From: a phage
Strand: one strand, 5' to 3'
Assembly: GCA_020619395.1 (NCBI GenBank)
Contig: GCA_020619395.1_4860.1
DNA length: 64,000 nt
The number at the start of each line of letters is the position of its first letter. Positions within the stretch are counted from its first letter, which is position 1. The notes under the pieces were generated by a model. That model had not been told where the DNA came from and made no database searches. It saw only the letters and a list, made by a program, of their open reading frames with translations. Positions 16,611 to 37,492 of the stretch are shown here, piece after piece. The translations under genes were made by a program, and so were the position numbers.

Positions 16611-18911
16611 TTAGCCGCCAGCGCCTTCACCGCCAGTACCTGGCTGGGTAGCACCGCCGCCAACATCACCAGCATTACCGCCGTCAGTACCATTAGTACC
16701 GTTGGAAGTAGTAGTGACGTTGAACGCCAGTTTCTCTTCCACGAACTTGGTGATACCTTTAATCCAGATCAGACCAGTGATCGGGCAGTGGCAGATGTGC
16801 GCGTTACGAGGCTGTACTGCCAGCTCTTTGCTGGTAGCGCCGTTACGCTGGATGTTGATGTTGGTTACCATGATCGGAGACCAGAAGTGGTTACCCCAGT
16901 TCAGAACACAGTAAGAACCATCATCAGCGGTTGGAACTTTCAGAACCCACTGCAGGCGACGAGTCCAGCTGCCGTCAGCTTCGTTCTTCACACGCCAGCG
17001 GTCATCGTTGGTGGTGATAACTTCGTACTCGTAGCGATCGCCCAGCAGACGCTGGTCGCCCTGAACCAGCAGCAGCATTGCAGCAGTCGGTTCGTCAGTT
17101 GCGATAACAACTTTCGGCAGCGCGTTCGGGTCCGCAGTCAGCAGGCGCAGAGCCGGCATGAAGCGAGAGTCCTGAATAGCACGAGTTACCTGGTCACCGA
17201 TACGCTGTACCAGACCCTGACGGGCGTTGATGAGCGCATCTTTGGTATCCAGAGACTGGATCACTTTGTCCACTTCGTAGTCGCTTTCGCTGTACCACGG
17301 AGCAACCCAGTGACGGCCCAGGCCGCGGATAGCAGGTTTGTCCCACGGAGTGATCATGGACGCAGCTGCGTTCTTAACCGCTTCGGTGTAAGACAGAGTC
17401 TGAGTAATAGCCAGCATTTCGTTACGGATGTTAACCGCAGAAACGAGGTCGTCCAGACGTTCGGTGTCGTCGTATTCAACGCCAACCGGAGATTTGGTCA
17501 TGATTGGAGAACCGTACTGCAGTTTGTAGTTCTCTTGTTCCCAAATCGGGTCGAGCAGAAGGCCCTGGGTTCTCCGGTTCTCGTTGGTACGAGTACCGTC
17601 GAAGCGCCAGCCCAGCAGCTCCAGTTTCAGGTTGTCGATGATGACTTTGCCGGTGCCGCTTTCGATATCAACAGCAGTACCAGTTGCGTCGTACAGACCT
17701 TCGATTTCCAGAGACGGTGCAGTCACGTCAACACGACCAGAGAACTGACCGTTGGTGAACAGAGACATGCTGATGTTCATGGAATAACGAATGGTGTAGT
17801 CGTTCTGTGCCAGAGCGGCCAGTGCCGGGATTTCAGCACCTTTCCAGTCCAGAGACTTGGCGTTCAGGGAGAACACGGTGCGACGGAACTGCAGGACCAG
17901 CTCACGGCCGTCACCTTCAGGAGGACGCTGGAAGGTAGCGAACTGCATGTCGCGTACGTTCAGTTTGATCAGTGCGCCATCTTTCGCTTCTTCGGTCGGC
18001 TTACGCACAGACAGCAGCAGGCTACCCAGCGCTGCACCCGGTGCGATTTCGTCGGTTTCGTCGTAACCTTCCTGCACGATACCCGGATGGGCAGACAGCT
18101 GGAACAGGTTCAGACGACGCTCAGAGAAGCTCAGGTAGTTGGTCGGATACGCCGGCACACGACCCAGCTGAACGTTTTCGTTTTCGATGATGTCTTCGGA
18201 TACGAAGAACTTCGCGTTCTCACCGGTTTCCATCACGTAAGGAACGATACGGATAGCATCGTCCTGCAGGACTTTGTGGTTAGACAGCGCGTTATGCAGC
18301 GGCTGACGGTTGTCTTCAACCACGTCTTTGGTCAGCAGGGCGTTCAGGATACCACGAGTTACAGTAGTAACTTTGGTACGAACGGTGATGCCGACGTCGT
18401 TGGTGTCCACAGTGATGGTCGGGAACAGGGTTTCTGCAAACTTGGATTGAGTTTCCAGAGCACGCACGTTCAGCGTCCAGGTCAGACCCAGGTTTTTGTC
18501 CAGGTCTTTGTTGGTGTAGTATTCGGTTGCGACCAGCGGAGTTTTACCGTAGTCAGCAGCCAGAGATGCTGCACCGGAAATAGCGATCGGCATGTAGCTG
18601 GCATATTCCGGCTTCGCGCTCTCAGCAGCAACACGGGTCATGAAGTCATCTTCGTGACCGGCAGCAGCCAGAATCATCGCAGAAGCAACCTGAGCAGCGT
18701 GGCTCATGGTTTTGCCAGGGTTTACAGCTTCGTAGTGCTGCTGAGCAGTGTCACGCAGGTTGGTGAAGCCGGCAGCATTTTTACGTACAGATTCGCCAAC
18801 GGCTACGGTTTGCCATACGTCATTAGCGGAAGAGCCTGCCTTGGCAGCAGCGACCAGAGCATTGCCCTGCTGAACCAGCTGGTCCAGACTAGCGATACGG
18901 GTATCTTTCAT
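16611..18911 (-). CDS. abundant structural protein, putative major capsid protein (766 aa)
   Basis: Size matches the roughly 750-aa major capsid proteins of phiKZ-like phages; strongly biased high-expression-like codon usage; strong terminator. Product call is by size and context only. Confidence 0.4.
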   Translation of the reverse strand: MKDTRIASLDQLVQQGNALVAAAKAGSSANDVWQTVAVGESVRKNAAGFTNLRDTAQQHYEAVNPGKTMSHAAQVASAMILAAAGHEDDFMTRVAAESAKPEYASYMPIAISGAASLAADYGKTPLVATEYYTNKDLDKNLGLTWTLNVRALETQSKFAETLFPTITVDTNDVGITVRTKVTTVTRGILNALLTKDVVEDNRQPLHNALSNHKVLQDDAIRIVPYVMETGENAKFFVSEDIIENENVQLGRVPAYPTNYLSFSERRLNLFQLSAHPGIVQEGYDETDEIAPGAALGSLLLSVRKPTEEAKDGALIKLNVRDMQFATFQRPPEGDGRELVLQFRRTVFSLNAKSLDWKGAEIPALAALAQNDYTIRYSMNISMSLFTNGQFSGRVDVTAPSLEIEGLYDATGTAVDIESGTGKVIIDNLKLELLGWRFDGTRTNENRRTQGLLLDPIWEQENYKLQYGSPIMTKSPVGVEYDDTERLDDLVSAVNIRNEMLAITQTLSYTEAVKNAAASMITPWDKPAIRGLGRHWVAPWYSESDYEVDKVIQSLDTKDALINARQGLVQRIGDQVTRAIQDSRFMPALRLLTADPNALPKVVIATDEPTAAMLLLVQGDQRLLGDRYEYEVITTNDDRWRVKNEADGSWTRRLQWVLKVPTADDGSYCVLNWGNHFWSPIMVTNINIQRNGATSKELAVQPRNAHICHCPITGLIWIKGITKFVEEKLAFNVTTTSNGTNGTDGGNAGDVGGGATQPGTGGEGAGG

Positions 18912-30676: not shown

Positions 30677-31222
30677 TCATTGAACCATACGCTGCGCGTC
30701 GTAAGACGGTGCGAGGTTCACAACACGACCATGTAGAGTTTGCTCTGCTTCGTCTAACAGGTCATCGCGTACGAGCGTCTGGCGAATGTAAAGCGTTGCC
30801 CGTATCCCCTCAGCGCTGTAAGGCGCGGTGACCATTTTGGTCTGGTAACCTTCAATCGTCACCGGAACACGCTCGCCATTACGACGAACAAAATGCTCCA
30901 GCTTACCGTAATCGTGACTGCAGACTTTAGACATGTCAGACAATCCCGCATCGATTAAGTATTTCCAAAGACTGACGATGCCTTCTGAGCAATGTTTGTT
31001 AAGTTCACCTTCGACGACAAACTCGTACCCACCGTACGTTAGAATGTGCGTGCCTGCTGAACGACGGTCACATTCTAAAATGAACACGCCCAGACCAATC
31101 ATAACCGGACGTGGGATTGTCATGACACTGGTACTAAATTGCAGCGTAGTAACCTCATCCCAAAGGGGCGATGATTTGTCGTTGCTTACACTAATAACAT
31201 CTTTGAGATTGACACGTTTCAT
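30677..31222 (-). CDS. hypothetical protein (181 aa)
   Basis: ORF; promoter-like motif F lies upstream. Confidence 0.5.
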   Translation of the reverse strand: MKRVNLKDVISVSNDKSSPLWDEVTTLQFSTSVMTIPRPVMIGLGVFILECDRRSAGTHILTYGGYEFVVEGELNKHCSEGIVSLWKYLIDAGLSDMSKVCSHDYGKLEHFVRRNGERVPVTIEGYQTKMVTAPYSAEGIRATLYIRQTLVRDDLLDEAEQTLHGRVVNLAPSYDAQRMVQ

Positions 31223-31288: not shown

Positions 31289-32042
31289 CTGGTTCTTCAG
31301 CGGTTTTCACTTCAACTGGTTTCATCAACGAGTTCGCACAGTCGAAGATAGCATCCAGGAAACCACGGAACGGCTTCATGGCTTCACGCTGGGCGTTCTG
31401 ACGTTCTTCTTCAATTGCGTCTTCTTGCGCCTGAATTTCTTCAGCAGTCAGCTCCGGGTGTTCCATCATGCTTTCTGCCAGGGTCATCACTTTCGGCTGC
31501 GCATTCAGAATCGGAATACGGCGGATGACCTTGGTGATATTCCCGAGCTTCATGCCACCCAGCATGGTATCGAACAACGTACCGAAATCTTGCAGTGGGT
31601 CTTCGCTGATTTCCAGTACCGCCGGAGTCGCAACCAGACCAAAGGCAATGACCAATTCAACAGCAGTGTCAGTGACGTGCGCAGCGAACGGAGTGTCTTC
31701 CATCTGCAGGTAATTGTTACCATTATAGGTCACCGGAATGAATTTGATTTCTTCCCCTTTCTTCAGGCGCAGTGTATCGACTGCGGCTTTGTACTGAACT
31801 TCGTACAGTTCCGGTTTAACACCGTCAACGTTATCCAGTGTAAAGAGCAGGTCGCCAACCGCCATACGGCGCGGTAGTTTGCGTTTGTTGATTTCGCGCA
31901 GCCAGACTTGTAAGCCGGTGAATTGAATTGGGGACAGTCTAATTTTAAAGCCGTTGGTTGCTTGCAGGATAGCACCGTCGTCTTCGCTACGTTCGATAGA
32001 GCCATTAGCCAGAGTGAGCAGATTGATAGTTTTCATTTTCAT
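31281..32042 (-). CDS. hypothetical protein (253 aa)
   Basis: ORF; first gene after promoter-like motif B. Confidence 0.5.
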   Translation of the reverse strand: MKMKTINLLTLANGSIERSEDDGAILQATNGFKIRLSPIQFTGLQVWLREINKRKLPRRMAVGDLLFTLDNVDGVKPELYEVQYKAAVDTLRLKKGEEIKFIPVTYNGNNYLQMEDTPFAAHVTDTAVELVIAFGLVATPAVLEISEDPLQDFGTLFDTMLGGMKLGNITKVIRRIPILNAQPKVMTLAESMMEHPELTAEEIQAQEDAIEEERQNAQREAMKPFRGFLDAIFDCANSLMKPVEVKTAEEPAA

Positions 32043-32110: not shown

Positions 32111-32143
32111 CTTTTCTAATCTGAGACAAAAAAAGAAAGGGTA

Positions 32144-32167
32144 AATCCCCCACCGAAGTGGGGGATT
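32144..32167 (-). terminator. rho-independent terminator
   Basis: aatcccccac-cgaa-gtgggggatt hairpin with A/T-runs after the stop of 32179..33438. Confidence 0.7.
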
Positions 32168-32178
32168 CGCCAGTCTAA

Positions 32179-33438
32179 TTACTTAGACTTTTCATACGCA
32201 CCGATACCGGCGCTGATGTAGCCGTTAACGCCGGCGATCAGGTTTTTCTGGCCGGTTGCAACGCAACGTTCGGTCCAGGAGATGTACTGGTTCGCAACGG
32301 TGATTGCACGACGTGCAACACGGACGTTGGAAGTCAGTTCAGCGTTGTCGTCGATCTTCACGCCGTCGATACGTTTCAGCAGCGCCTCAATAGCCCGCTC
32401 GTACGATTCTTGAGCCTGGTTATTTTTGTGGTACGCTTTCACGTTCTCTTCGACTGCTTTACCCAGCTGGTTGAAGAACGCAACCAGAGAAGACAGCGTC
32501 TGAGCAGACGGAGTAGAAACAGATTTTTCTACGCTGCCTTCAGCATCGATAACGGTGAAGGAAGCTTCCAGGTCATCCCCGTTCACTTTCACGTCAGCTT
32601 TACCGATCTGGTTACCCAGCAGTTGAACTTCGCCCGCTTTGCCTGCAGTGGCTTTGTTAACCGCTGCTGCGAAGCCGCTGTTCAGTTTGCCGCCTTCAAC
32701 TGAGCTGACCATGCGGGTTGCATCTTTGACCACTGCTTCCTGCTCGCCGTAGATGCTGCCGATAGTAGACAGAACACCTTTCAGTGCATTGATGTCGTCA
32801 CCAACAAACTTACCACCGGTGGTCAGGTTCTTAATGAACCCACCGCTAATGGTGTCTTTCTTCTGCTTGCCCAGGCCACGCAGAGCCGCGTCATATTTCT
32901 TAGCGCGTGCCTGAATGGATTTACCCTGGTTGCTGAACTTGAGCCAGCGATCTTTGATTTTACGGCCTTGTTCTTTCAGCCAGTCGAAGATACGCTGCAG
33001 GAACGCTTTGATGTCGTCCCACAGTGATTCGCGAGCAACCTGACGGCGTTTACGTGCGCCGTAAGATTCCTGCGCAACGCTTACGCGGTGATCGAATGCC
33101 CAACGCTTACGGATAGATTCCTGCGCAACGTCCAGCTGCTCAGCAGCTTCGTCAGGCATATCTTCTTCCACTTCCATTGGCTCTTCGCCATCTTCGCCTT
33201 CGCCGTCAGCGGCGGCTTCAGCAGCATCAACTGCATCCAGCTGTGCATCAGTTTCGTCACCGTCTTCTGCCAGCACGTCTGCTTCTGCGTCCAGCTGGTC
33301 GATCGGTTTGGTGTCATGCTCGATGTCAGCCAGAGTACCTTCCACGGACTCAGCCGGCAGCTCGATGCCATCTGGAACGACAGTGCCTGCGCCTTCGACA
33401 GATTCACGAGCGAGTTTACTTTTTACAAAGTTAGCCAT
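32179..33438 (-). CDS. acidic paralog A (419 aa), possible virion/internal head protein
   Basis: Shares N-terminus MANFVKSKLARESVE, internal VAQESIRKRWA and C-terminus GAGIGAYEKSK with the adjacent gene; highly acidic N-terminal third; biased codon usage. Confidence 0.6.
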   Translation of the reverse strand: MANFVKSKLARESVEGAGTVVPDGIELPAESVEGTLADIEHDTKPIDQLDAEADVLAEDGDETDAQLDAVDAAEAAADGEGEDGEEPMEVEEDMPDEAAEQLDVAQESIRKRWAFDHRVSVAQESYGARKRRQVARESLWDDIKAFLQRIFDWLKEQGRKIKDRWLKFSNQGKSIQARAKKYDAALRGLGKQKKDTISGGFIKNLTTGGKFVGDDINALKGVLSTIGSIYGEQEAVVKDATRMVSSVEGGKLNSGFAAAVNKATAGKAGEVQLLGNQIGKADVKVNGDDLEASFTVIDAEGSVEKSVSTPSAQTLSSLVAFFNQLGKAVEENVKAYHKNNQAQESYERAIEALLKRIDGVKIDDNAELTSNVRVARRAITVANQYISWTERCVATGQKNLIAGVNGYISAGIGAYEKSK

Positions 33439-33454
33439 CTTTTTCTATCCTCTA

Positions 33455-33475
33455 GGCGGTACGCCGTGTACCGCC
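33455..33475 (-). promoter_or_regulatory. inter-paralog stem-loop (possible attenuator or RNA processing site)
   Basis: ggcggtac-gccgt-gtaccgcc hairpin between the paralogs with no T-run, followed by GAGGA ribosome-binding site of the downstream paralog. Confidence 0.3.
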
Positions 33476-33515
33476 ATTAATGATTTGTCAACTGACGTTC
33501 AGTACGTAAAGCGGA

Positions 33516-34793
33516 TTAAGCTTTAGACTTTTCGTACGCGCCAATACCAGCGCCGATGTAGCCGTTCAGGCCGCTAATAACAGTGTTACCAACGTGAGCC
33601 ACAGCACGGTTCAGAGTCTGGTAGTTACGCACAGCCTGGTCAGCTGCAGTACGTGCATTACGCAGCGCTTCCCACTCACCTTCGTCGTTGGATTTTTTCA
33701 GAGCGGCAGCAGCTTTGGCAGCAGCCTCTTCCAGTTTCTCAACGTCAGCGTCGTAGCTGCGGAAGTCTTGCAGGACTTTCTCGAAACCTTTACCGATAAC
33801 GTCCAGGGCAGACGCAGCAGATGCCAGTGCAGAAATAGCCGGAGTAGCGATTTCTTTCGTTTCAGAAACGTCACCCGTCGACAGGAAGGCCACTGCGGTG
33901 AATTCCTGGCCGCCTGCCAGAGTTTTGCTGCCGGTCTGTACATAGGCGTTGCCTGGCAGTGCCAGAACTTTCTGACCGCCTTCGCCGTCTTCGAATTGCG
34001 GCAGTGCGCGCAGTTTCTTCGCAGCGGTACCAAACAGGGCAACGTCAACAGCGCCTTTAGCAGCGGTTGCGGTACCGTCTGAAGTTTTGGTGATCGCTAC
34101 AGCAGAGTCAGCCGCCTGAGAGGACAGCTTGTTGATGGCATCTTTCGCTTTACCGCCGGTCAGCTCTTTCGCGATAGCGATAGAGTTGGCCACATCGAAT
34201 TCACCTTCGATAGACAGTTTGCTAATAAAGCCACCAGAAATGTTTTCTTTCTTCTGTTTGCCGAGCTTACGCAGCATCTCCTGGTAAGCTTTCGCACGTT
34301 TCTGCGCGGACTTACCAACGTTGATGTACTTCAGTTTCAGCTCTTTCGCTTTCGCGATAACTGCTTTACACAGTTCAACGAAGCGTTCGAACAGATCTTT
34401 CAGGGTTTCTTTCCAGCCTTCCTGAGCTGCTTTGGTCATGCCACGGCCACGGCGATAAGATTCGCGCGCCAGTTTGGTACGATCGATAGCCCAACGTTTA
34501 CGGATAGATTCCTGCGCCACTTCGGTGTGAGCGATGGCTTCTTCAGGCATCTCTTCACCGTTTTCGATTTTTTCGTCAGCAGCGTCGATAGCAGCTTCGG
34601 TACGCTCGGTATCAGCAGCCAGAGTTTCCTGGTCGCCATCGAGCTGTTCCAGCTGACCGTCGATAGACGCAACTTCTGCCAGCTGGACGTCGATGTTCTC
34701 TTCTGCCGGTTCAACGTTGCTCAGACCGTCGATTACGTCGCCGGTAGCTTCAACGGACTCGCGGGCGAGTTTACTTTTTACAAAGTTTGCCAT
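33516..34793 (-). CDS. acidic paralog B (425 aa), possible virion/internal head protein
   Basis: Paralog of 32179..33438 (same N- and C-terminal peptides, about 85% nucleotide identity at the ends). Confidence 0.6.
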   Translation of the reverse strand: MANFVKSKLARESVEATGDVIDGLSNVEPAEENIDVQLAEVASIDGQLEQLDGDQETLAADTERTEAAIDAADEKIENGEEMPEEAIAHTEVAQESIRKRWAIDRTKLARESYRRGRGMTKAAQEGWKETLKDLFERFVELCKAVIAKAKELKLKYINVGKSAQKRAKAYQEMLRKLGKQKKENISGGFISKLSIEGEFDVANSIAIAKELTGGKAKDAINKLSSQAADSAVAITKTSDGTATAAKGAVDVALFGTAAKKLRALPQFEDGEGGQKVLALPGNAYVQTGSKTLAGGQEFTAVAFLSTGDVSETKEIATPAISALASAASALDVIGKGFEKVLQDFRSYDADVEKLEEAAAKAAAALKKSNDEGEWEALRNARTAADQAVRNYQTLNRAVAHVGNTVISGLNGYIGAGIGAYEKSKA

Positions 34794-34849
34794 TTGTTTC
34801 GGTTCCTTTGGTTATAACCCAATTACACGCCCCTAGATAAGGGGCCCCC

Positions 34850-35407
34850 TTAGGGACGTGCGATTTTTAAAAACACTGCTAACGACGAGATCATATCGGA
34901 TAACCCGTTCGGACGTGTCAACCAACGTGCCAGCAGTTCGTGGTCTGCATAAGATAATAGACGCCGGTCAGGCGTGTACGTCTGATGCGCAGTTCCCATA
35001 CGGCGAACTTGCCCACTACGACCGTAAGCCGCAGCAAGAAGTCGTGAGCCCAGGGAACCGGTTCGCTCTACTTGCTTAGTAGAGTGGATATCGTTCATGT
35101 ACGATACCAGAAGAACGGACCACTGTCCTGTTGACACTGTACGGCGTTTACCGTCAAGTATGAACGATGCAGATTCGTTATAAAACGTATTAAACGTAAA
35201 ACCGACCTGCGGATATTCGTCATATAATACTTGTTGGACAGAGTCAGCGCCCATCATGCGGAAATACGGCAGCACAACGGCTGCAGCTTCCAGGGTTTCA
35301 TGTATCAGTTCGTCGTCATGAACCAGCACGGGGTTTTGGGTCAGTTTCGCCATGTAGTTTTTAATCAACTTCTCGGCGAGGTTAAAATTCTGGTCATTGT
35401 CAAACAT
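34850..35407 (-). CDS. hypothetical protein (185 aa)
   Basis: AGGAG ribosome-binding site upstream. Confidence 0.5.
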   Translation of the reverse strand: MFDNDQNFNLAEKLIKNYMAKLTQNPVLVHDDELIHETLEAAAVVLPYFRMMGADSVQQVLYDEYPQVGFTFNTFYNESASFILDGKRRTVSTGQWSVLLVSYMNDIHSTKQVERTGSLGSRLLAAAYGRSGQVRRMGTAHQTYTPDRRLLSYADHELLARWLTRPNGLSDMISSLAVFLKIARP

Positions 35408-36373: not shown

Positions 36374-37492
36374 TTACAGTACCGGATTCGCGCCGACGCG
36401 ATAGGCATCGATGATTTTGTTTACATCGCCGCTACCGGACTTCGCCTTGCTAAAGTCTGATTTGTCGAGTTCTTGAGACCCGGTCTGACCACGCGTATAA
36501 ATGGTTACACGGTTCCAGGTCTGGTCGACAACCACGTAGTAAACAGTCAGGGTGTCTTTGAACACACGCTGGCGGATATTGTAATCATCGAAGTCACCGC
36601 CCAGCTGAGCAGTCAGATCGTCGATAGTTTCTTGAGAAACCACCATAACCGAAGACGCGTTGTTGATGGATGGGCTCAGCGTCAGCAGGCCAGACAGCCA
36701 GTTGGCGTTTTTCTTTTCCATCATCTTACGGTAATAACCGGACTTATCACGGAAGCGGTTCTTACGGTATTCTTCAATGAGGTCATTACACAGCGCGATA
36801 TCTTTCGCGTAGCTGAGAGAACCGACCTTCGCACGCAGCACACGTTCCCAGAAGGTTTTGGTTTGATCGCTGAACGCAATGAGCGTTTTCATTTCGTCGG
36901 TCGGCAGAGACTTCACATCAAGACGCAGACGCATCGGCAGCTCGACTTTATTACCGTCACGTTCGAAGGTAACAGAGAACACTTTACCGTTGGACAGACC
37001 TTCTTGATCATGCAGGAGCTTCAGCGTGTTGTTCGGCAGCACAGAACCTGCGGACGATTCAGTCGCTACTTTGTTATCGGATTTCTGGCGACGGGATTCA
37101 CCGACCGCAAGCCCGATTTTATCGTATGACGGCAGCGTGTGACGGGAGGACTCGCCGATTGCGAAAGACGCTAAGCGAGAACCCGAACGTGCAGCCGCAT
37201 CGAGGGCATTACGACGGGTGCTAACCTGGTCAAGCGTACCAAGGATATCAACCTCAGGAACACCCACCAGAATTGAGATGGCGGTAAGTTGGTTGCCCGC
37301 GAGCAGGATTTGGATTTTCTCCAGAATACCTGGCAGGTAATCTAAGCCCAACAGACTTTGTTCAACCAGCGTGGTGTGCTCGTTGTACAGCACAGAGTTG
37401 AATTCTTCCGTCGATTCCGCCCGCTGGCGAAGCAGCATGGGAAACTTAGAAAGAAAGGAGACGAGCGATGTCTCAAATGTTTTTTCTGCCAT
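36374..37492 (-). CDS. hypothetical protein (372 aa)
   Basis: ORF; start 22 nt from the divergent plus-strand start at 37515. Confidence 0.55.
   Translation of the reverse strand: MAEKTFETSLVSFLSKFPMLLRQRAESTEEFNSVLYNEHTTLVEQSLLGLDYLPGILEKIQILLAGNQLTAISILVGVPEVDILGTLDQVSTRRNALDAAARSGSRLASFAIGESSRHTLPSYDKIGLAVGESRRQKSDNKVATESSAGSVLPNNTLKLLHDQEGLSNGKVFSVTFERDGNKVELPMRLRLDVKSLPTDEMKTLIAFSDQTKTFWERVLRAKVGSLSYAKDIALCNDLIEEYRKNRFRDKSGYYRKMMEKKNANWLSGLLTLSPSINNASSVMVVSQETIDDLTAQLGGDFDDYNIRQRVFKDTLTVYYVVVDQTWNRVTIYTRGQTGSQELDKSDFSKAKSGSGDVNKIIDAYRVGANPVL

Follow-up and report, generated by a model that had tools for sequence, protein, structure and literature searches.

The jumbo phage SPN3US packages two paralogous internal head proteins, gp53 and gp54, each of which is present at more than 600 copies per head as estimated by mass spectrometry (Ali et al. 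2017, PMC5694885). Judged from spectral counts divided by mass in virions (21.0 for gp53 and 20.2 for gp54), the two are about equimolar (PMC5694885). The same study described both as similar to pfam12699 and found that their first 15 residues (MANFVKSKLARESVE) are identical despite an overall identity of 34%, that this peptide holds AXE-12 and SXE-15 motifs, and that it recalls the capsid-targeting sequences of T4. Weintraub et al. 2023 mapped the cuts made by the prohead protease gp245, which follow ARE-12, AQE-95, and AQE-125 in gp53 and AQE-124 and ARE-137 in gp54 (PMC10052503 Table 2) and leave mature proteins that start with GWKETLK and SLWDDIK, respectively (PMC10052503). The propeptides remain uncut in protease mutants, and recombinant gp245 cuts gp53 in vitro (PMC7411985); a T=1 inner shell is built by gp53 and gp54 when the capsids are protease deficient (PMC7552025). 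The gene pair described here lies at positions 32179 to 34793, on the minus strand, of a 64,000-nucleotide (64-kb) stretch of phage DNA. This whole stretch is referred to as the window, and all positions are those of the window.

Information on related proteins comes from two other jumbo phages. In phiKZ, residues 14 to 84 of gp93 stay on the inner capsid wall as a cementing fibre (PMC11297242). In Goslar, injection of gp58 has been shown (bioRxiv 10.64898/2026.04.21.720040), and the same 2026 preprint regards what PF12699 proteins do after injection as a key mystery that is still unsolved. Very probably, the products of the two window genes are precursors of the internal head ("ejection") proteins that rank as the two most abundant in their phage; they would belong to PF12699, be processed by gp245, and begin with a composite leader.

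Identity and family of the tandem pair

The window shares 98.7 to 99.2% DNA identity with SPN3US and its close relatives (Seoulvirus) and belongs to an SPN3US-like Salmonella jumbo phage of that genus. The first gene of the pair (33516..34793, minus strand) encodes a 425-residue precursor that is 100% identical to SPN3US gp53 (YP_009153347), and the second (32179..33438, minus strand) encodes a 419-residue precursor that is 98.3% identical to SPN3US gp54 (YP_009153348); the RefSeq name of these proteins is "internal head protein." A full-length BLASTP comparison of the two window proteins gave 34% identity (E = 2e-48), identifying them as paralogs, and the tandem arrangement recurs at the 24 related loci in IMG/VR, in every one whose contig reaches far enough. 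At the DNA level, a repeat finder recovered three islands of similarity between the genes, of 53 nucleotides (85%), 43 nucleotides (88%), and 51 nucleotides (86%). The initial annotation of the window had described tandem paralogs with an identical 15-residue N-terminus, a common VAQESIRKRWA(F/I)D peptide about 100 residues in, and a shared ending, ...GAGIGAYEKSK. Both proteins do start with MANFVKSKLARESVE, and the internal peptide is found as VAQESIRKRWAID at residues 92 to 104 of gp53 and as VAQESIRKRWAFD at residues 104 to 116 of gp54. The C-termini are also shared, but the quoted ending is off by one residue and a terminal alanine, as gp53 ends in ...GAGIGAYEKSKA and gp54 in ...SAGIGAYEKSK.

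Both proteins match the Pfam family PF12699 (phiKZ_IP), gp53 at 254.1 bits (E = 3.3e-75) and gp54 at 194.5 bits (E = 4.5e-57), against a gathering cut-off of 27 bits and with positions 2 to 387 of the 387-position model covered. Both also match PHROG 2497, "internal head protein" (E = 1e-150 for gp53 and 1e-141 for gp54). The same Pfam model is hit by phiKZ gp95 (E = 2.3e-56) and gp96 (E = 1e-7). By BLAST, gp53 and gp54 resemble phiKZ gp93 with E values of 5e-4 and 2e-5 at about 24 to 29% identity, and they are collinear with it from the first cleavage site, where KLARE/SVE in the window proteins corresponds to KLSLE/SIE in gp93 (slashes mark protease cuts here and below). The neighborhood is syntenic with the phiKZ gp89-gp95 cluster, the window gp50 corresponding to gp89 (E = 4e-33) and gp51 to gp90 (E = 9e-19). 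An AF2 model of gp53 reached a pLDDT of 81.5 over its full length and 89.7 over the mature domain, and a Foldseek search of BFVD returned 97 viral matches with E values below 1e-3, including virion proteins of 201phi2-1, PhiPA3, Psa21, and Noxifer, which belong to the phiKZ group. Kinship with the inner-body and internal head proteins of phiKZ had been proposed in the initial annotation, together with a profile search as a check; the PF12699 matches over the whole model, the synteny with phiKZ, and the 97 fold matches agree with that proposal. Its comparison with T4 works as an analogy but does not extend to a sequence relationship, as the Pfam and PHROG scans gave phiKZ-type internal head families only and no homology to IPI, IPII, or IPIII.

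A sequence search of the PDB yielded no significant relative, the only match being to SNF7 (E = 0.03) on the acidic coiled region, which was taken as noise. The top Foldseek matches in the PDB were all to soluble toxin components of the ClyA family (SmhA, MakA/B/E, HblL1, and NheA), from which it could be argued that the mature domains are membrane-active, ClyA-type alpha-pore formers that build a conduit or vesicle at infection. This is very improbable, and the candidate was rejected: the matches are not significant (E values of 0.25 to 2 and TM values of 0.17 to 0.24), and the mature domains have neither a hydrophobic beta-tongue nor a transmembrane-like stretch, the maximum KD(19) values being 1.56, in an Ala/Ser-rich helix of gp53, and 0.85 in gp54.

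The window gp54 differs from its SPN3US counterpart at seven positions, which are confined to 72 residues of the mature domain (residues 197 to 268; 32635-32850), a patch that could be locally variable or recombinant. In the records of Salmonella phages SPFM1, SPFM5, SPFM6, SPFM8, and SPFM12 (LR535901, LR535903, LR535905, LR535906, and LR535911; proteins P0052-P0058), several gp53 homologs appear block-scrambled, with C-terminal segments first and the N-terminal RESVEATGD last, and tblastn matches to these records are split into two to four pieces covering 10 to 44% of the query. The scrambling is probably an artefact of assembly or annotation.

Precursor layout and the shared leader

Each precursor divides into an acidic propeptide and a net basic mature domain. 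The gp53 propeptide (residues 1 to 125; 34419..34793, minus strand) has A-x-E sites ending at residues 12, 95, 111, and 125, with the maturation cut at AQE-125/GWKETLK (PMC10052503, PMC7411985), and the gp54 propeptide (residues 1 to 137; 33028..33438, minus strand) has such sites ending at residues 12, 107, 124, and 137, with the maturation cut at ARE-137/SLWDDIK (PMC10052503). The published cleavage contexts TKAAQE/GWKETLK and QVARE/SLWDDIK are both found in the window proteins. Net charges are -15 and -26 for the propeptides of gp53 and gp54 and +7 and +9 for the mature parts. The mature domain of gp53 (residues 126 to 425; 33519..34418, minus strand) is predicted to form four long helices and a small beta subdomain and has a conserved GYIGAGIGAY C-terminus; that of gp54 comprises residues 138 to 419 (32182..33027, minus strand). 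Between the N-terminus and the VAQES block, identity between gp53 and gp54 is 28%, in keeping with the diverged acidic middle region of the initial annotation. The VAQESIRKRWA block itself occupies residues 92 to 102 of gp53 (34488..34520, minus strand), where it holds the mapped cut AQE-95/S (PMC10052503), and residues 104 to 114 of gp54 (33097..33129, minus strand), where it holds an AQE-107/S motif.

Trimming by the prohead protease at x-x-E sites, which the initial annotation predicted by analogy, has been established experimentally for SPN3US gp53, to which the window protein is identical, and for gp54 (PMC10052503 Table 2, PMC7411985); the virion mass spectrometry with N-terminal mapping that it called for was thus already published for SPN3US and agrees with the prediction. 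Its remark that [S/A/G]-x-E triplets are numerous holds for gp54, which has 19 against 10.7 in composition-matched shuffles (p = 0.002), but not for gp53 (14 against 13.1, p = 0.43). The stricter motif A[RQ]ES occurs at eight sites and, among the long open reading frames of the window, only in gp53 and gp54. When 28 homologs are aligned, the propeptide is invariant at N3, F4, A10/E12/S13, A93/E95/S96 with R100/W101, A109/E111/S112, and A123/E125, and these coincide with the gp245 sites mapped by mass spectrometry (PMC10052503 Table 2). Because the invariant columns are cleavage motifs, the islands of similarity noticed in the initial annotation are the protease sites and their immediate context.

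The shared N-terminal peptide is composite. In gp53, codons 1 to 15 (34749..34793, minus strand), which encode MANFVKSKLARESVE, comprise a basic leader (residues 1 to 12) that, by alignment and by the mapped cut after ARE-12 (PMC10052503 Table 2), ends at the first protease site, ARE/S; the same peptide is encoded by codons 1 to 15 of gp54 (33394..33438, minus strand). Between the two genes of the window, these 15 codons show six synonymous differences and no nonsynonymous ones. Codons 3 to 9 are identical in DNA, as part of an exact run of 23 nucleotides, whereas codons 10 to 14 (ARESV) each differ at the third position, synonymously, so that identical codons make up seven of eight at positions 2 to 9 and one of six at positions 10 to 15.

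The same two parts are seen across 14 non-redundant genomes. At residues 2 to 9, identity is 0.82 between paralogs of the same genome, against 0.52 both between orthologs and between paralogs of different genomes. At residues 16 to 90 the corresponding values are 0.28 for paralogs of the same genome, 0.63 to 0.68 for orthologs, and 0.27 for paralogs of different genomes, and at residues 126 to 405 they are 0.25, 0.48 to 0.62, and 0.24; the order expected for an ancient duplication is therefore inverted at residues 2 to 9 only. At the five variable positions of the leader, paralogs of the same genome differ by 1.44 residues, compared with 3.1 to 3.3 between genomes, and none of 20,000 shuffled pairings of leaders reached the observed value, a figure that is rough as the genomes are related. 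Shared leader variants are lineage specific in at least five lineages (VKSKL, AKTRA, AQRNL, AQRK[VI], IQQ[RK]L, and MQ[KQ]RA). In one genome (L006), gp53 and gp54 match exactly over 49 nucleotides at their 5' ends, gp54 carrying the copy, whereas the sister genome L007 has retained another leader in gp54, and the differences between the gp54 genes of L006 and L007 cluster at +20 to +50; the 49-nucleotide run is clearly a gene-conversion tract, a single event that is directly visible. Residues 10 to 15 are a cleavage site under deep purifying selection, conserved in every homolog, and residues 2 to 9 evolve in concert, at least partly via short-tract gene conversion.

In the working proposed here, gp53 and gp54 are expressed late and at very high levels as a pair, with no T-tract terminator between them and a strong one after gp54. 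Each precursor consists of a basic N-terminal helix of 12 residues up to the first cleavage site, ARE/S, a strongly acidic and fast-diverging propeptide body with conserved A-x-E/S sites, and a helix-rich basic mature domain of about 30 kDa. Published work has shown that hundreds of copies of each protein join the capsid protein in assembling the prohead, where they form an inner shell, and that gp245 then cuts the A-x-E sites, freeing mature domains that remain in the DNA-filled head. The acidic body may serve until DNA packaging as a mask for the basic mature domain or as an assembly spacer, and the mature domains would eventually be injected into the host with the DNA, as the homologs in phiKZ and Goslar suggest. 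During prohead assembly both paralogs would present the same leader to one shared partner, and like leaders within a genome would be expected because both proteins would need the same leader for that partner.

It is tentatively proposed that residues 2 to 9 act as a phage-specific "address tag" matched to one rapidly co-evolving prohead partner and, relatedly, that residues 13 to 95 of gp53 are kept on the capsid wall. Candidate partners are gp243, which is needed for incorporation of gp53 and gp54, the protease gp245, and the inner face of the capsid protein. The cleaved acidic fragment of gp53 (residues 13 to 95) may be retained as a cementing fibre, like residues 14 to 84 of phiKZ gp93. Were this so, the residual gp53 propeptide peptides detected by mass spectrometry (PMC10052503) would be explained, because the fragment would stay on the capsid wall.

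Several points count against the interpretation as a whole. An hhalign comparison of the family alignment with the single phiKZ gp95 sequence was not significant (E = 0.12), and a hidden Markov model built from the family alignment matched no phiKZ protein; because of these two negative results, it is the Pfam model, the weak gp93 BLAST matches, synteny, and fold that carry the link to phiKZ. Injection of gp53 and gp54 into Salmonella is suggested by the phiKZ and Goslar homologs, and targeting by residues 1 to 12 would be the same analogy-based hypothesis as that of Ali et al. 2017 (PMC5694885). In three lineages (L004, L005, and L007/L008), the N-termini of the paralogs differ at three or four of the five variable positions, so strict identity of the leaders is not required. 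Lastly, gene conversion between the tandem paralogs could have homogenised residues 2 to 9 as a neutral side effect.

On that neutral account, leader identity would be a mere footprint of recurrent short-tract conversion, and residues 2 to 9 would be only a short helix before the protease site. Consistent with it, the exact DNA runs extend from the ATG region (23 nucleotides in the window and 49 in L006), both paralogs share non-preferred codons (AGT for Ser, CTC for Leu, and GTA for Val) that point to shared DNA descent, and differing paralog N-termini are tolerated in some genomes. Conversion is nevertheless not seen elsewhere in the genes, although the homology in the VAQESIRKRW and C-terminal blocks is just as long or longer; N3 and F4 do not vary, positions 5 to 9 are basic/amphipathic in all homologs, and phiKZ paralogs likewise keep a leader of 12 to 13 residues before the first cleavage site. 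The neutral account is considered possible but doubtful. An alternative in which the 5' stretch is selected as mRNA, as a shared A/T-rich translation-initiation region for very high expression rather than as a peptide, fits an identity that begins at the ATG and the A/T-rich codons 3 to 9 (AAC TTT GTA AAA AGT AAA CTC) in genes that otherwise use optimal codons ending in G or C. It is nonetheless quite unlikely, as the DNA of codons 5 to 9 varies widely between genomes and is not consistently A/T rich (CAA CGT AAT CTT; ACT CGC GCC), and the ribosome-binding regions upstream of gp53 and gp54 are unrelated.

One gp54 ortholog (L010:4820-6115; IMG/VR UViG_3300011741_000001) has an in-frame upstream ATG that would add nine residues (MSLPRGKEK) before the conserved start MNFAQRNLARES. 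Judging from the leader and ribosome-binding site, both of which are conserved, the true start is probably the downstream ATG.

Expression signals and the intergenic hairpin

The codon usage of both genes is typical of high expression, as the initial annotation had noted. Their host-optimal codon fractions are 0.80 and 0.77, compared with a window mean of 0.55 (standard deviation, 0.09; 55 genes), and they rank second and third among the 55 genes, behind only the major capsid protein (16611-18911). A strong intrinsic terminator with an 11-bp GC-rich stem, a TTCG loop, and a T-run lies 3' of gp54 (32128..32168, minus strand).

Between the two genes lies a hairpin, GGCGGTAC-ACGGC-GTACCGCC (33455..33475, minus strand), with an 8-bp stem, a 5-nucleotide loop, and no T-tract, located 1 nucleotide upstream of the gp54 Shine-Dalgarno sequence AGAGGA (33448..33453, minus strand), a ribosome-binding site that is invariant in all relatives. 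This is the sole arrangement in the window in which a hairpin abuts a ribosome-binding site. All 15 non-redundant related genomes have a GC-rich hairpin of 7 to 10 bp, with energies of -13 to -20 kcal/mol, at 0 to 1 nucleotide upstream of the invariant AGAGGA, and its stability was matched by at most 1 of 300 shuffles. The stem carries compensatory changes at several positions, one of them with TA, TG, AT, GC, and CG pairs. These comparisons were anchored on the ribosome-binding site, replacing RNAalifold on a MAFFT alignment, which mis-registered the stem arms owing to the variable loops and gave five pairs. Rfam covariance models had no match with an E value of 1 or less between positions 31900 and 35000.

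The initial annotation had placed a stem-loop lacking a T-tract between the paralogs and suggested that it could set their relative expression. The stem-loop is present as described, but its use as an attenuator for unequal expression is unsupported, since the proteins are about equimolar in virions (PMC5694885). Understood in that way, the hairpin would be a T-tract-independent partial terminator, or a stabiliser of the gp53 3' end, that lowers gp54 relative to gp53; its GC-rich stem, stability, and compensatory changes in 15 genomes are compatible with such a function, as is the fact that it matches no Rfam family. That reading is somewhat unlikely. Besides the near-equal spectral values of the proteins (21.0 and 20.2), a T-tract follows the hairpin in none of the 15 genomes, so that it does not classify as an intrinsic terminator, whereas the site after gp54 has both required elements. 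The fixed distance of 0 to 1 nucleotide to AGAGGA would also be a better fit for an insulator or stabiliser that serves gp54 translation or protects the 5' end of a gp54 message than for termination. A role tied to gp54 translation or message stability is therefore favored over attenuation, because the proteins are about equimolar and the spacing to the ribosome-binding site is fixed.

Upstream of gp53, a second hairpin of the gene cluster that lacks a T-tract lies over the stop codon of the gp52 ortholog (34826..34860, minus strand), with about -23 kcal/mol for a 70-nucleotide stretch. A palindrome, GGTTATAACC, about 16 nucleotides upstream of the gp53 start (34810..34819, no strand assigned), is conserved ahead of the gp53 ortholog in every related genome (ggttataaccaaa...) and could be a gene-specific regulatory site. 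It was rejected as a recurrent promoter motif: the window contains one perfect copy, and allowing up to one mismatch gave four matches against 1.8 expected. Matches to sigma-70-like promoters between positions 31000 and 37600 were not in excess (5 against 5.1 in shuffles). The window has a coding density of about 94% (1-64000), and neither tRNA genes nor Rfam families at gathering score were found across it. In the nearby gp50 ortholog (36374-37492, minus strand; 372 residues), the first A-T-E motif ends at residue 145, whereas PMC10052503 Table 2 gives ATE-127; the propeptide mass of 15.8 kDa reported in PMC10052503 is better fitted by about 145 residues, and the difference may be one of numbering.

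Comparison with other internal head proteins

The identical N-terminus, the 34% paralogy, the A-x-E cuts, and the analogy with targeting sequences are already known from publications on SPN3US (PMC5694885, PMC10052503, PMC7411985, PMC7552025). A literature search on whether internal head proteins undergo gene conversion or concerted evolution turned up nothing relevant in the searchable literature, and the concerted evolution of the leader and the hairpin at the ribosome-binding site, neither of which was found there, are modest additions. Few components of jumbo-phage virions are as abundant as PF12699 proteins, which enter the host with the genome. Concerted evolution in the leader is relevant to the recruitment of two different proteins, in hundreds of copies, to the prohead, and the conserved hairpin next to the ribosome-binding site of gp54 is relevant to how equal amounts of the two are maintained. 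If residues 2 to 9 do act as an address tag, the 12-residue leader with ARE/S would be a portable signal for bringing foreign cargo into the heads of jumbo phages, from where it would reach the early infection vesicle.

The SPN3US proteins gp53 and gp54, described by the Thomas and Weintraub laboratories as "paralog family A" among the high-abundance E proteins, are the same proteins as those of the window, with the same gene order and intergenic signals; apart from the seven gp54 substitutions there is no substantive difference. The likeness to T4 IPI, IPII, and IPIII is one of design, as these are also abundant basic proteins that are packaged and injected with the DNA and have a short leader to an x-x-E site that is removed by the protease. 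The propeptides of the window pair are much longer, however (125 to 137 residues), and targeting has been demonstrated in T4, whereas for gp53 and gp54 it is proposed by analogy.

The phiKZ proteins gp92 to gp97, gp162, and gp163 resemble the window pair in their membership of PF12699, a syntenic head gene cluster, a high copy number in the head, and a homologous prohead protease. They share a similar layout, in which a leader of 12 to 13 residues runs up to an x-x-E site and a propeptide and then a helix-rich domain come after it. In contrast to the two window genes, with their homogenised N-terminus and stricter A-x-E motif, the eight phiKZ paralogs have diverged, and they have N-termini unlike one another and an S/L-L-E motif. 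The vertex-binding minor capsid protein gp86 of phiKZ (PDB 8y6v chain G) has 12% identity and differs in its copy number and in being fixed at the vertices; no link at the sequence level was found, including to SPN3US gp47, which is the counterpart of gp86 by position. In the Escherichia coli chimallivirus Goslar, gp58 and gp53 belong to PF12699, are present at about 2,150 and 330 copies per virion, and are encoded in a syntenic cluster. Goslar thus has one dominant paralog in place of an equimolar pair, and its likeness to the window proteins lies in family, copy number, and synteny.

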